DNA of 64,000 bases. It comes from Escherichia coli (GTDB lineage: Bacteria > Pseudomonadota > Gammaproteobacteria > Enterobacterales > Enterobacteriaceae). Position numbers and translations under genes: made by a program. The stretch is from NCBI RefSeq assembly GCF_013122565.1, contig NZ_CP053258.1; one strand, 5' to 3'. The notes beneath the pieces were generated by a model that was not told where the DNA came from, ran no database searches, and saw only the letters and a list, made by a program, of their open reading frames with translations. Of the stretch, positions 10,465-53,384 are shown in pieces (the first letter of the stretch is position 1; every line of letters starts with the position of its first letter).

Positions 10465-11016
10465 TCAGGGCAACTCCGGTGGCAGCCACTCTTCCACTTC
10501 AATCAACACCAACAACGCCGCATCACCGCCATACTCTTTTGGTGCCTGGTGAAACGCCATCACATGCGGATGTTGTGCCAGCCACAGCGGTGTTTGTTGC
10601 TTCAAAATATGCTTCCCGTGACCATGCATCACGCAGGCGCAAAACACATGTTCGCGGCGACAGGCGGCAATCAACGCGCCCAGTTCCTGCTTGGCCTGCA
10701 GCTGCGTCAGACCGTGTAAATCCAAAAACAATTCCGGCGAATAATCGCCACGGCGCAACTTCTTCGCCTCAAAATGACTCACATCCGGGCGAACATATTT
10801 CACCGGACCTTCGGTATTTAATAACGGCTGAAACTCATCGGAGAAATAATGGCTGGCATCAGCCTGCTCCTGAATCAAGCGTTTCACCGGTACTTCGCTG
10901 ATTTTCTTACGCTGTGGTCGGTGGACAATCGTGTCCTGCTTAATCTTGCGAGTCCCCGCCATCAACTGGCGAAACAGCGCCTGGTCCTCCTCGCTTAGTG
11001 TTGTTTTCTTTTTCAT
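10465..11016 (-). CDS. smrB: Ribosome rescue endonuclease SmrB (Smr domain)
   Basis: 183-aa [21 protein letters not shown]... with C-terminal Smr domain; divergent from prmB. Confidence 0.9.
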
Positions 11017-20820: not shown

Positions 20821-22994
<2,174 letters not shown>

Positions 22995-32318: not shown

Positions 32319-32888
32319 ATGAAACGACTCATTGTAGGCATCAGCGGTGCCAGCGGCGCGATTTATGGCGTGCGCTTATTACAGGTTCTGCGCGATGTCA
32401 CAGATATCGAAACGCATCTGGTGATGAGCCAGGCGGCGCGCCAGACCTTATCCCTCGAAACGGATTTTTCCCTGCGCGAAGTGCAGGCATTAGCCGATGT
32501 CACGCACGATGCGCGCGATATTGCCGCCAGCATTTCTTCTGGTTCTTTCCAGACACTGGGGATGGTGATTTTACCCTGTTCAATCAAAACCCTTTCCGGC
32601 ATTGTCCATAGCTATACCGATGGTTTACTGACCCGTGCGGCAGATGTGGTGCTGAAAGAGCGTCGCCCGTTGGTGCTCTGCGTGCGTGAAACACCATTGC
32701 ACTTAGGCCATCTGCGTTTAATGACGCAGGCAGCAGAAATCGGTGCGGTGATTATGCCTCCCGTTCCGGCGTTTTATCATCGCCCGCAATCCCTTGATGA
32801 TGTGATAAATCAGACGGTTAATCGTGTTCTTGACCAGTTTGCGATAACCCTTCCTGAAGATCTCTTTGCCCGCTGGCAGGGCGCATAA
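32319..32888 (+). CDS. ubiX: Flavin prenyltransferase UbiX
   Basis: 189-aa ORF MKRLIVGISGASGAIYGVRLL... Confidence 0.9.
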   Translation: MKRLIVGISGASGAIYGVRLLQVLRDVTDIETHLVMSQAARQTLSLETDFSLREVQALADVTHDARDIAASISSGSFQTLGMVILPCSIKTLSGIVHSYTDGLLTRAADVVLKERRPLVLCVRETPLHLGHLRLMTQAAEIGAVIMPPVPAFYHRPQSLDDVINQTVNRVLDQFAITLPEDLFARWQGA

Positions 32889-32896
32889 CTCCGCTG

Positions 32897-32920
32897 TTGC
32901 CCTGTTTCAGGGCAATTTTG
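32897..32920 (+). terminator. Hairpin plus T-tract after ubiX
   Basis: TTGCCCTG-tttc-CAGGGCAA followed by TTTT. Confidence 0.6.
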
Positions 32921-33068
32921 CAACCGCGATCAAATCCTCGACATTTTGTTTCTGCCATTCAATCGAAACGCTGCGATTCAACCGCTATACCTGCTATCTT
33001 CAACTTCAGGACAATAATGCAACGTCTTATTAACATATTTAACGTTGAATGTTACTGTTGTCGTCAAG

Positions 33069-33084
33069 ATGGCATAAGACCTGC
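33069..33084 (+). promoter_or_regulatory. Candidate sigma54 (-24/-12) promoter upstream of argT
   Basis: TGGCATAAGACCTGCA fits TGGCAC-N5-TTGCA spacing, ~70 bp upstream of argT. Confidence 0.5.
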
Positions 33085-33153
33085 ATGAAAGAGCCTGCAA
33101 ACACACAACACAATACACAACATAAAAAAGCCATTTTCACTTGAGGGTTATGT

Positions 33154-33936
33154 ATGAAGAAGTCGATTCTCGCTCTGTCTTTGTTAGTCGGTCTCTCCGC
33201 AGCGGCTTCCAGCTATGCGGCGCTACCGGAGACGGTACGTATCGGAACCGATACCACCTACGCACCGTTCTCATCGAAAGATGCTAAAGGTGATTTTGTT
33301 GGCTTTGATATCGATCTCGGTAACGAGATGTGCAAACGGATGCAGGTGAAATGTACCTGGGTTGCCAGTGACTTTGACGCGCTGATCCCCTCACTGAAAG
33401 CGAAAAAAATCGACGCCATTATTTCGTCGCTCTCCATTACCGATAAACGTCAGCAGGAGATTGCTTTCTCCGACAAGTTGTACGCCGCAGATTCTCGTTT
33501 GATTGCCGCCAAAGGTTCGCCGATTCAGCCAACGCTGGATTCACTGAAAGGTAAACATGTTGGTGTGCTGCAGGGATCAACCCAGGAAGCTTACGCTAAC
33601 GAGACCTGGCGTAGCAAAGGCGTGGATGTGGTGGCCTATGCCAACCAGGATTTGGTTTATTCCGATCTGGCTGCAGGACGTCTGGATGCTGCGTTACAAG
33701 ATGAAGTTGCTGCCAGCGAAGGATTCCTCAAGCAACCTGCTGGTAAAGACTTCGCCTTTGCTGGCTCATCAGTGAAAGACAAAAAATACTTCGGTGATGG
33801 CACCGGTGTAGGGCTACGTAAAGATGATGCTGAACTGACGGCTGCCTTCAATAAGGCGCTTGGCGAGCTGCGTCAGGACGGCACCTACGACAAGATGGCG
33901 AAAAAGTATTTCGACTTTAATGTCTACGGTGACTGA
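33154..33936 (+). CDS. argT: Lysine/arginine/ornithine periplasmic binding protein
   Basis: 260-aa secreted ORF, paralog of the adjacent hisJ. Confidence 0.85.
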
Positions 33937-34156
33937 TACGTCGCAGGGAAGCTGTACCTGATGGAATGATCATCATGGTACACGCCAGGTTTGTTGCACT
34001 ATCGTGGTGCATTGAAATGCATACTTAAGCATTTTTAATGAAAAATAATACGTCTAACGGGGCGGGATATTTTGCCTTGATGGTCAATTTTATGGCACGA
34101 TAAGTGTAACAAACCTGTAAATATTCCCTATAAAAAGACTGTCAGTTGAGGACATT

Positions 34157-34939
34157 ATGAAAAAACTGGTGCTATCGCTCTCTCTGGTTCTGGCCTTCTC
34201 CAGTGCAACTGTGGCGTTTGCTGCGATTCCGCAAAACATCCGCATCGGTACCGACCCGACCTATGCGCCATTTGAATCAAAAAATTCACAAGGCGAACTG
34301 GTTGGTTTCGATATCGATCTGGCGAAGGAGTTGTGCAAGCGCATCAATACGCAATGTACGTTTGTCGAAAACCCGCTGGATGCGTTAATCCCGTCCTTAA
34401 AAGCGAAGAAGATTGACGCCATCATGTCATCGCTTTCCATTACGGAAAAACGTCAGCAAGAAATTGCCTTCACCGACAAACTGTACGCTGCCGATTCTCG
34501 TCTGGTGGTGGCGAAAAATTCCGACATTCAGCCGACAGTCGAATCGCTGAAAGGCAAGCGGGTAGGCGTATTGCAGGGCACCACCCAGGAGACGTTCGGT
34601 AACGAACACTGGGCACCAAAAGGCATTGAAATCGTCTCGTATCAGGGGCAGGACAACATTTATTCTGACCTGACTGCCGGACGTATTGATGCCGCGTTCC
34701 AGGATGAGGTCGCTGCCAGTGAAGGTTTCCTCAAACAACCCGTCGGTAAAGATTACAAATTCGGTGGCCCGTCTGTAAAAGATGAAAAACTGTTTGGCGT
34801 AGGGACCGGCATGGGCCTGCGTAAAGAAGATAACGAACTGCGCGAGGCACTGAACAAAGCCTTTGCCGAAATGCGCGCTGACGGTACTTACGAGAAATTA
34901 GCGAAAAAGTACTTCGATTTTGATGTTTATGGTGGTTAA
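34157..34939 (+). CDS. hisJ: Histidine periplasmic binding protein
   Basis: 260-aa secreted ORF upstream of hisQMP. Confidence 0.85.
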
Positions 34940-52166: not shown

Positions 52167-53384
52167 TTACAGCTGATGATAACCAGAAAGGAAACGCGCG
52201 AACTTGCTCAAAGACAGCTCGATATCATCGACACGCGGTAGCGTGACAATGCGGAAGTGATCCGGCCACGGCCAGTTGAATGCCGTCCCTTGCACCAACA
52301 GAACTTTTTCCTGCAACAGGAAATCCAACACCATTTTCTGATCGTCGTGAATGTTAAAGCGTTTGGCGTCGATTTTCGGGAACATATACAGCGCACCACG
52401 AGGTTTCACGCAGGAAACGCCCGGAATATCGTTGATCAATTCCCATGCGCGGTTACGCTGCTCATAAAGACGACCGCCAGGGGTAATAAATTCACTGATG
52501 CTCTGATAACCACCCAGCGCGGTCTGAATGGCGTGTTGCGCAGGAACGTTAGCACACAGGCGCATTGAAGCCAGCATTTCCAGACCTTCGATGTAGCCTT
52601 TGGCGTGTTTTTTCGGCCCGTTCAACACCATCCACCCCTGACGGAAGCCTGCAACGCGGTACGTTTTCGACAGGCCGTTAAAGGTAATGGTCAGCAGGTC
52701 AGGTGCCAACGGCGCAATTGAGTGATGCTCAGCGTCGTCGTAGAGAATTTTGTCATAAATTTCATCGGCGAAGATAATGAGATTATGCTGACGTGCAATC
52801 TCCACAATCTCCATTAAAAGCTCTTTGGAATATACCGCGCCGGTTGGGTTATTTGGGTTGATAATAACAATCCCACGCGTACGAGGCGTAATTTTAGCGC
52901 GAATATCATCGAGGTCCGGGAACCAGTCAGAGGATTCATCGCAAAGATAATGTACTGCTTTACCGCTGGAGAGCGAAACCGCCGCGGTCCATAGTGGGTA
53001 ATCAGGTGCAGGAACTAACATTTCGTCCCCGCTGTTCAGCAATGCCTGCATTGCCTGAACGATAAGCTCCGATACACCATTGCCGATGTAAATATCTTCC
53101 ACGGTAACATCACGCATGCCACGAGCCTGGTAGTGCTGCATGATGGCTTTACGCGCGGAGTAAAGCCCTTTGGAATCGCAATACCCTTGAGCGGTAGGCA
53201 GGTTGCGTATCACATCAACGAGGATTTCATCTGGCGCGTCAAAACCGAATGGGGCTGGGTTGCCGATGTTCAGTTTCAGTACCTTGTTACCTTCTTCTTC
53301 CAGGCGTTTTGCTTCTTTCAGCACCGGACCACGGATGTCATAACAGACATTCTCTAATTTGCTGGATTTTTCAATGGGGGACAT
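52167..53384 (-). CDS. alaA: Glutamate-pyruvate aminotransferase
   Basis: 405-aa PLP-dependent aminotransferase ORF MSPIEKSSKLENVCYDIRGP... Confidence 0.9.
   Translation of the reverse strand: MSPIEKSSKLENVCYDIRGPVLKEAKRLEEEGNKVLKLNIGNPAPFGFDAPDEILVDVIRNLPTAQGYCDSKGLYSARKAIMQHYQARGMRDVTVEDIYIGNGVSELIVQAMQALLNSGDEMLVPAPDYPLWTAAVSLSSGKAVHYLCDESSDWFPDLDDIRAKITPRTRGIVIINPNNPTGAVYSKELLMEIVEIARQHNLIIFADEIYDKILYDDAEHHSIAPLAPDLLTITFNGLSKTYRVAGFRQGWMVLNGPKKHAKGYIEGLEMLASMRLCANVPAQHAIQTALGGYQSISEFITPGGRLYEQRNRAWELINDIPGVSCVKPRGALYMFPKIDAKRFNIHDDQKMVLDFLLQEKVLLVQGTAFNWPWPDHFRIVTLPRVDDIELSLSKFARFLSGYHQL

Follow-up and report, generated by a model that had tools for sequence, protein, structure and literature searches.

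The -24/-12 element upstream of argT in Escherichia coli is very probably the core of the known sigma-54 promoter argTp

Positions 33070-33085 of the window, the whole 64-kb stretch of Escherichia coli DNA that was analysed, very probably (at roughly 0.93) form the core of argTp, the sigma-54 (RpoN) promoter of argT, which would work by a nitrogen-controlled mechanism involving NtrC. The promoter is already documented and its identification is therefore not new; it is the same promoter as argTp of E. coli K-12 and not merely a relative of it. The product of the gene, ArgT, is the periplasmic binding protein for lysine, arginine and ornithine and works together with the HisQMP transporter. The promoter core and the gene are arranged as follows:

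33070..33085, plus strand: sigma-54 core promoter argTp, with -24 TGGCAT and -12 CTGCA in GG-N10-GC arrangement
33143..33156, plus strand: Shine-Dalgarno sequence GAGGG and ATG of argT, from the ORF list
33154-33936, plus strand: argT coding sequence, a 260-codon ORF; RefSeq annotates the matching E. coli locus as lysine/arginine/ornithine ABC transporter substrate-binding protein

In an exact-string search, TGGCATAAGACCTGCA occurred a single time in the window, at 33070-33085 on the plus strand. It lies within the 265-bp spacer between ubiX and argT, in sense orientation to argT, and is laid out as TGGCAT, five bases (AAGAC) and CTGCA. The initial annotation had reported a sigma-54 element of the form TGGCAT-N6-CTGCA at 33069-33084. 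The element and both of its boxes are indeed present, but the coordinates were one base too far to the left and the gap is N5 rather than N6. The GG-N10-GC spacing typical of RpoN promoters had been given correctly, as GG occupies 33071-72 and GC 33083-84 with exactly 10 bases between them, and the distance of about 70 bp to argT agrees well with the 68 nt that separate the 3' end of the element from the ATG at 33154. Compared with the consensus TGGCAC-N5-TTGCW, argTp shows two deviations, C to T and T to C, both of which are common among real sigma-54 sites (site list in PMC4591121).

The strength of the motif was evaluated in several ways. The degenerate pattern TGGCAYN5YTGCW was searched over the 64-kb window and compared with 100 shuffles, yielding two matches versus 0.52 expected, a number reached by 13 of the 100 shuffles. 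A consensus search allowing two mismatches (19 matches versus 27.6 expected) was uninformative, and a weight matrix was used instead. This was a leave-one-out matrix built from the 41 other published E. coli intergenic sigma-54 ChIP-seq sites, with argT excluded (Bonocora et al., 2015; PMC4591121). With 14.9 bits, argTp has the highest score in the window on either strand and exceeds 14 of the 41 training sites. Markov simulations gave 1.22 equal or better matrix matches per 64 kb. Because about 1.2 such matches are expected by chance in a stretch of this length, the motif match by itself is not beyond chance and proves nothing. Taking position and orientation within the argT spacer into account (1.22 x 265/128000) leads to a value of about 0.003, which is a rough, post-hoc estimate. 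The significance of argTp comes from its position, its conservation and experiment, not from the motif score. Three further matrix matches were noticed on the minus strand, at 10565-10581, 22732-22748 and 52693-52709, with 14.0, 13.3 and 12.2 bits, respectively. The first of them overlaps long ORFs on both strands (10465-11016, minus; 10479-10901, plus). None of the three is present in the published high-stringency sigma-54 ChIP-seq tables, and they are probably chance resemblances.

The region was found in 5425 of 5426 complete E. coli genomes with a best identity of 98.9%, and the gene order is folC-dedD-cvpA-purF-ubiX-argT-hisJQMP. The ubiX-argT spacer (32889-33153) is 100% identical to that of K-12 strains, for example RP437 and C600, and published K-12 experiments therefore apply to the DNA of the window. 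The spacer is covered to at least 80% in 5423 of the 5426 genomes, and identity reaches 95% or more in nearly every matching record. When the window was compared with K-12, 96 mismatches were counted in 5265 bp (1.8%), all of them in flanking genes. A continuous stretch of 466 bp (32733-33198), running from the end of ubiX through the entire spacer into the beginning of argT, has zero differences to K-12 where about eight would be expected; either purifying selection acting on the regulatory region or a patch exchanged by recombination could be the cause. A single genome of the 5426, that of E. coli B27 (NZ_AP027424.1), is without ubiX and carries unrelated sequence up to the -12 element. Its match to the window begins only at 33084 and the replaced part corresponds to about 32320-33083, so the argT sigma-54 promoter has been lost in that strain.

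Between ubiX and argTp, the following structure was found:

32895..32920, plus strand: terminator-like hairpin after ubiX, UUGCCCUG-UUU-CAGGGCAA, then UUUUG

RNA folding gave -15.1 kcal/mol for the hairpin at 32895-32916 (z = -4.15), and none of 200 shuffles was as stable. The hairpin is conserved in the alignment, where Pseudocitrobacter and one Enterobacteriaceae genome carry compensatory changes in it. A simple terminator scan of 32800-34200 missed it, as the threshold was too strict for the short T-run. The hairpin implies that argT is separated from the upstream operon, and argT therefore needs a promoter of its own.

Binding of sigma-54 to this DNA is documented in the literature. Bonocora et al. 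(2015) list the 17-mer ATGGCATAAGACCTGCA as intergenic sigma-54 ChIP-seq site OS22 for argT with a FAT value of 12 (PMC4591121, Table 1), at a time when the status of the E. coli argT sigma-54 promoter in EcoCyc was only 'predicted'. Window positions 33069-33085 are the same 17-mer, which, together with the K-12 identity of the spacer, bears out the initial annotation in its assignment of the element to RpoN. An RpoN-holoenzyme gSELEX peak in the argT/ubiX spacer (61%) was reported by Shimada et al. (2021; PMC8743547). For Salmonella, Samuels et al. (2013) give TGGCATAAGACCTGCATG, i.e., the argTp 16-mer extended by TG, at argT, which is among four operons experimentally known to be sigma-54 dependent. 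In that organism, argT was bound in ChIP-chip and the WT/rpoN expression ratio was 3.5-fold in the presence of a constitutively active enhancer-binding protein (PMC3844500).

Nitrogen regulation of argT through NtrC, likewise put forward in the initial annotation, is established in the literature. In N-starved cells, Brown et al. (2014) detected an NtrC ChIP-seq peak at argT (2425861-2425941), which converts to about 33026-33106 of the window and lies over argTp. The peak is weak (5.4-fold) and was added by visual inspection (PMC4066584). The same work has argT as a known member of the NtrC regulon with a transcription unit that is up-regulated in N starvation (PMC4066584), and it is explicitly stated in the literature that argT uses an NtrC-activated sigma-54 promoter. 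Expression data and the weak ChIP peak together show that argT responds to nitrogen and to NtrC. Ma et al. (2020) cloned argTp as an engineering part for nitrogen-responsive expression and found it to be the strongest of the sigma-54 promoters compared (PMC7045595). Their primers map to a 197-bp fragment, positions 32899-33095 of the window. The strong reporter activity of this fragment could stem from a sigma-70 promoter, because the fragment contains the one described below. Control of argTp by ArgR was also considered and was rejected, as argT is apparently not ArgR-regulated according to the literature.

For the analysis of conservation, orthologous loci were fetched with a degenerate pattern that encodes an 11-residue peptide of ArgT and is blind to the promoter. 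This resulted in 38 loci, which belong to six named genera (Escherichia, Citrobacter, Salmonella, Kluyvera, Pseudocitrobacter and a 'Klebsiella' sp.). Across the aligned upstream regions, TGGCA (33070-74) and TGC (33082-84) are invariant in all 38 loci and no indel occurs between them. The seven bases between the two elements have only 14-29% identity in Kluyvera (e.g., TGGCACAGAAGATGCA), the remaining spacer has 40-58% identity in distant genera, and the bases just upstream of argTp, 33061-33065 and 33068, are poorly conserved. The distance from the first base of the element to the ATG is 81-90 nt in 37 of the 38 loci; in E. albertii it is 71 nt because of a deletion in the leader. Judged from the alignment, such an invariant core amid diverged surroundings is the footprint to be expected of a -24/-12 promoter. 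In the supplementary conservation table of Bonocora et al., scores are likewise similar from species to species (PMC4591121). Elsewhere in the spacer, strongly conserved blocks were noted at 32919-32940, 32964-32984, 32991-33001 and 33028-33045. The sequence CTG-TATCTT (32991-33000) is invariant in all 39 sequences, the most divergent included, with the exception of one variable base, and the conserved block TTATTAACATATTTAACG includes the candidate sigma-70 -35 element. These blocks could be sites for NtrC, IHF or another regulator.

The geometry of the promoter predicts a transcription start and a leader with the following properties:

33096 (within about 2 nt), plus strand: predicted sigma-54 transcription start, 12 nt after the C of the -12 GC
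33096..33122, plus strand: C/A-rich 5' leader TGCAAACACACAACACAATACACAACA, target of the R1 seed of the small RNA GcvB

The motif centre at 33077 plus 19 bp leads to the same start, 58 nt before the ATG at 33154. Table 1 of Bonocora et al. likewise has the predicted argT start 58 nt from the gene, with the start taken 19 bp after the motif centre (PMC4591121). A mapped sigma-54 start for E. coli argT was not found in the literature. The G/U-rich R1 region of K-12 GcvB (L042, 1060-1265; Rfam RF00022) is complementary to the leader at 33096-33122, and pairing begins exactly at the predicted sigma-54 start. The C/A-rich block is conserved across genera in the alignment. In Salmonella, argT is a verified GcvB target, and in E. 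coli it is classed as 'Conserved' with supporting interaction counts. An Rfam scan of 32500-34500 returned no RNA family, and the conserved leader is therefore not a catalogued riboswitch or leader.

A published sigma-70 promoter overlaps argTp, with the following candidate elements:

33030..33058, plus strand: candidate sigma-70 promoter, with -35 TTAACA at 33030-35, a 17-bp spacer, TG at 33050-51, -10 TACTGT at 33053-58 and a start at about 33064

The hexamers are our own reading, made from the start position given by Schaefer et al. (2015), in whose data the sigma-54 motif spans +6 to +22 relative to an active sigma-70 start (PMC4551910, Table S3). These authors found that in nitrogen-replete E. 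coli argT expression with rpoN was 23% of that without rpoN and that sigma-54 decreased sigma-70 abortive initiation on an argT fragment by 10-60% in vitro (PMC4551910). Because rpoN deletion raises argT expression in replete cells, much of the steady-state argT transcript under these conditions can originate from the sigma-70 promoter. In the alignment, the candidate -10 is poorly conserved, even within Escherichia. A simple sigma-70 scan of 32800-34200 yielded no promoter, its thresholds being too strict for the TTAACA/TACTGT pair.

From these data, the following sequence of events is proposed for argTp. RNA polymerase carrying sigma-54 would sit on the -24 GG and the -12 GC as an inactive closed complex; binding is taken from the published ChIP-seq and in-vitro selection with identical DNA, and the closed state is what we infer. 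Upon nitrogen limitation, phosphorylated NtrC would loop to the closed complex and open it with ATP. Transcription starting near 33096 would produce an mRNA with a 58-nt leader, the C/A-rich 5' end of which is the target of GcvB, so that the transcript would be induced by nitrogen limitation and, in addition, be subject to post-transcriptional repression in cells well supplied with amino acids. With nitrogen in sufficient supply, the sigma-54 holoenzyme, bound but inactive, would lower the overlapping sigma-70 transcription that starts about 30 nt upstream, as suggested by the published RNA-seq and in-vitro competition.

The position from which NtrC acts was approached by scoring candidate sites against the consensus TGCACCA-N3-TGGTGCA (14 scored positions) and a relaxed box, GCAnnAnnnTnnTGC (8 key positions). 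Two candidates were retained:

33006..33020: TCAGGACAATAATGC, a weak candidate for an NtrC box with its centre at about -83 relative to the predicted start; 7/8 in the relaxed comparison and 9/14 in the full one (33005-33021)
33995..34011: TGCACTATCGTGGTGCA, a strong match to the NtrC consensus that lies between argT and hisJ, about 907 bp further downstream than the argT start

No NtrC match better than 9/14 exists in the ubiX-argT spacer of Escherichia. The weak box is conserved in three genera (Escherichia, Citrobacter, Salmonella) and is not conserved in Kluyvera or Pseudocitrobacter. Relative to the weak NtrC ChIP peak (about 33026-33106), it is located slightly beyond the nominal 5' boundary. 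Inspection by eye revealed nothing convincing as an IHF site between enhancer and promoter. A Salmonella deletion study by Schmitz et al. from 1988 reportedly dealt with the sites essential for nitrogen regulation in that organism. In genera other than Escherichia, about 30 extra bases are present between the ubiX stop codon and the terminator hairpin, which are absent from the window at 32889-32896. In the three Pseudocitrobacter loci, this extra segment holds TGCACCAGTGTGGTGCT, which matches the NtrC consensus almost perfectly (13/14) and is separated from the argT ATG by about 292 nt, and Kluyvera sichuanensis has a 12/14 match at the same place; Escherichia is without the segment.

The site TGCACTATCGTGGTGCA is the best NtrC-consensus match of the 64-kb window (13/14 full, 8/8 relaxed) and the only one of consensus grade. 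It falls inside a strong NtrC ChIP-seq peak assigned to hisJQMP (fold 23.7; PMC4066584). Its counterpart scores 11-14 of 14 in 29 of the 33 loci with enough sequence. The remaining four, at 9/14, are E. albertii, Citrobacter NCU1, BIGb0407 with the weaker class of site that the window itself has, and a further divergent locus. A second dyad is located just upstream, at about 33951-33984, and reads TGTACC...GGTACA here and TGCACC...GGTGCA in Citrobacter. TGCACTATCGTGGTGCA may possibly serve as a remote enhancer of argTp.

A sigma-54-like element, ATGGCACGATAAGTGTA, was also observed upstream of hisJ, at 34092-34108 on the plus strand and 49 nt before the hisJ ATG at 34157; its matrix score of 12.8 is the fourth-best in the window. 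TGCACTATCGTGGTGCA lies about 116 bp upstream of the start predicted for this element. The corresponding sequence is TGGCACGATAACTGCA/T or TGGCACGATAACCGCT in Citrobacter, Kluyvera and Pseudocitrobacter and TGGCACGATAGCCGCA in Salmonella, all of which keep the -12 GC. In the window and in all five other aligned Escherichia loci, the -12 is GTGTA (GC to GT). A sigma-54 ChIP peak at hisJ is reported neither for E. coli (text and supplements of PMC4591121) nor for Salmonella (PMC3844500), and binding of sigma-54 at this look-alike was rejected on account of its absence from the Bonocora and Salmonella datasets. A comparison of the genera suggests that a hisJ sigma-54 promoter may have undergone lineage-specific decay.

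Three other readings of the argT element have to be weighed against an NtrC-activated sigma-54 promoter. It could bear a functionless chance resemblance to the sigma-54 consensus, with argT expressed from other promoters only. A matrix score of this height is expected about once per 64 kb, and other high scorers of the window (10565-10581 and 22732-22748) are missing from the high-stringency ChIP-seq tables. However, sigma-54 binds the exact sequence in vivo and in vitro (PMC4591121, PMC8743547), core bases and spacing are invariant in 38/38 loci while their surroundings have diverged, and both orientation and distance to argT are correct. We consider a chance match extremely improbable. The element could also function as a repressor: bound over +6 to +22 of the sigma-70 promoter, the closed complex would obstruct sigma-70 RNA polymerase or compete with it, and little initiation would be driven by sigma-54 itself. 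This is what the 23% expression level with rpoN and the 10-60% loss of sigma-70 abortive initiation would suggest (PMC4551910), and a plausible TTAACA-N17-TG-n-TACTGT is present at 33030-33058. Against it stand the induction of argT by N starvation, the binding of NtrC and the classification of argT as NtrC/sigma-54-activated in both E. coli and Salmonella. Moreover, argT expression rose 3.5-fold with a constitutively active enhancer-binding protein, an effect that depended on rpoN (PMC3844500), and conservation of the candidate sigma-70 -10 is poor even among Escherichia loci, in contrast to the -24/-12, which does not vary in any of the six named genera. In this form, repression is very unlikely. 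The two roles are not mutually exclusive, and argTp probably acts as an activating site during starvation and lowers sigma-70 transcription when nitrogen is plentiful.

The third reading leaves the sigma-54 promoter in place and concerns its enhancer. NtrC bound at the argT-hisJ site or sites, about 900 bp downstream, would loop back to the promoter, and a classical upstream enhancer (-100 to -150) would play no part. The sole consensus-grade NtrC site of the window, 33995-34011 (13/14), lies within a strong NtrC ChIP peak, nothing above 9/14 is found in the upstream spacer, and the weak NtrC signal seen at argTp is in keeping with cross-linking by way of a loop. That NtrC sites can work from afar is established knowledge for glnAp2. 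On the other side, the 197-bp fragment without the downstream site was strongly expressed, possibly from the sigma-70 promoter (PMC7045595), and the weak box at -83 (7/8 relaxed) is conserved in Escherichia, Citrobacter and Salmonella. We regard activation from the remote site as unlikely. Rather doubtful is the more detailed scenario in which Escherichia argTp, devoid of a classical upstream enhancer, would be fired by NtrC at the site or sites about 900 bp downstream and this enhancer would first have served the hisJ sigma-54 promoter, the -12 of which would since have decayed in Escherichia from CTGCA to GTGTA. If true, this would provide an example from nature of an enhancer that has been re-assigned to the promoter on its other side or is shared with it. 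The assignment of 33070-33085 to an NtrC-dependent argTp remains our preferred reading.

As a discovery, argTp matters little. It is a catalogued promoter that both sigma-54 ChIP-seq and in-vitro selection have mapped, and it already serves as an engineering part (PMC7045595). The case serves as a check that a real sigma-54 promoter is recognisable from sequence alone. Modest interest attaches to the route by which NtrC reaches argTp in Escherichia and to the apparent decay of the neighbouring hisJ sigma-54 element.

Among known systems, argTp of E. coli K-12 (OS22; in EcoCyc/RegulonDB as a sigma-54 promoter) agrees with the window in the 17-mer, the 265-bp spacer, the orientation and the 58-nt distance. 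No difference exists in the promoter region, and the window differs in flanking genes only. The argT promoter of Salmonella Typhimurium shares the core TGGCATAAGACCTGCATG, the gene and the regulator assignment (NtrC/sigma-54). This promoter is the argTr of the older literature (Ames & Nikaido 1985; Schmitz et al. 1988). In the two Salmonella subspecies that we aligned, the element is identical and its distance to the ATG is 81-83 nt. Their spacer differs from that of the window by about 30 extra bases between the ubiX stop codon and the terminator, and the rest is about 76-80% identical.

The textbook NtrC-activated sigma-54 promoter is glnAp2, with strong NtrC sites at about -108 and -140 that still work when moved far away, upstream or downstream. 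Like argTp, glnAp2 has a GG-N10-GC core, is induced through NtrC under nitrogen limitation and lies near a sigma-70 promoter. Unlike glnAp2, the Escherichia argT spacer is without a consensus-grade upstream NtrC site. With promoters of the glmY/glmZ type, argTp has in common that a sigma-54 site overlaps a sigma-70 promoter and that the two holoenzymes compete. It differs from them in that the argT sigma-54 site is situated downstream of the sigma-70 start, at +6 to +22, and does not fully overlap with the sigma-70 promoter.
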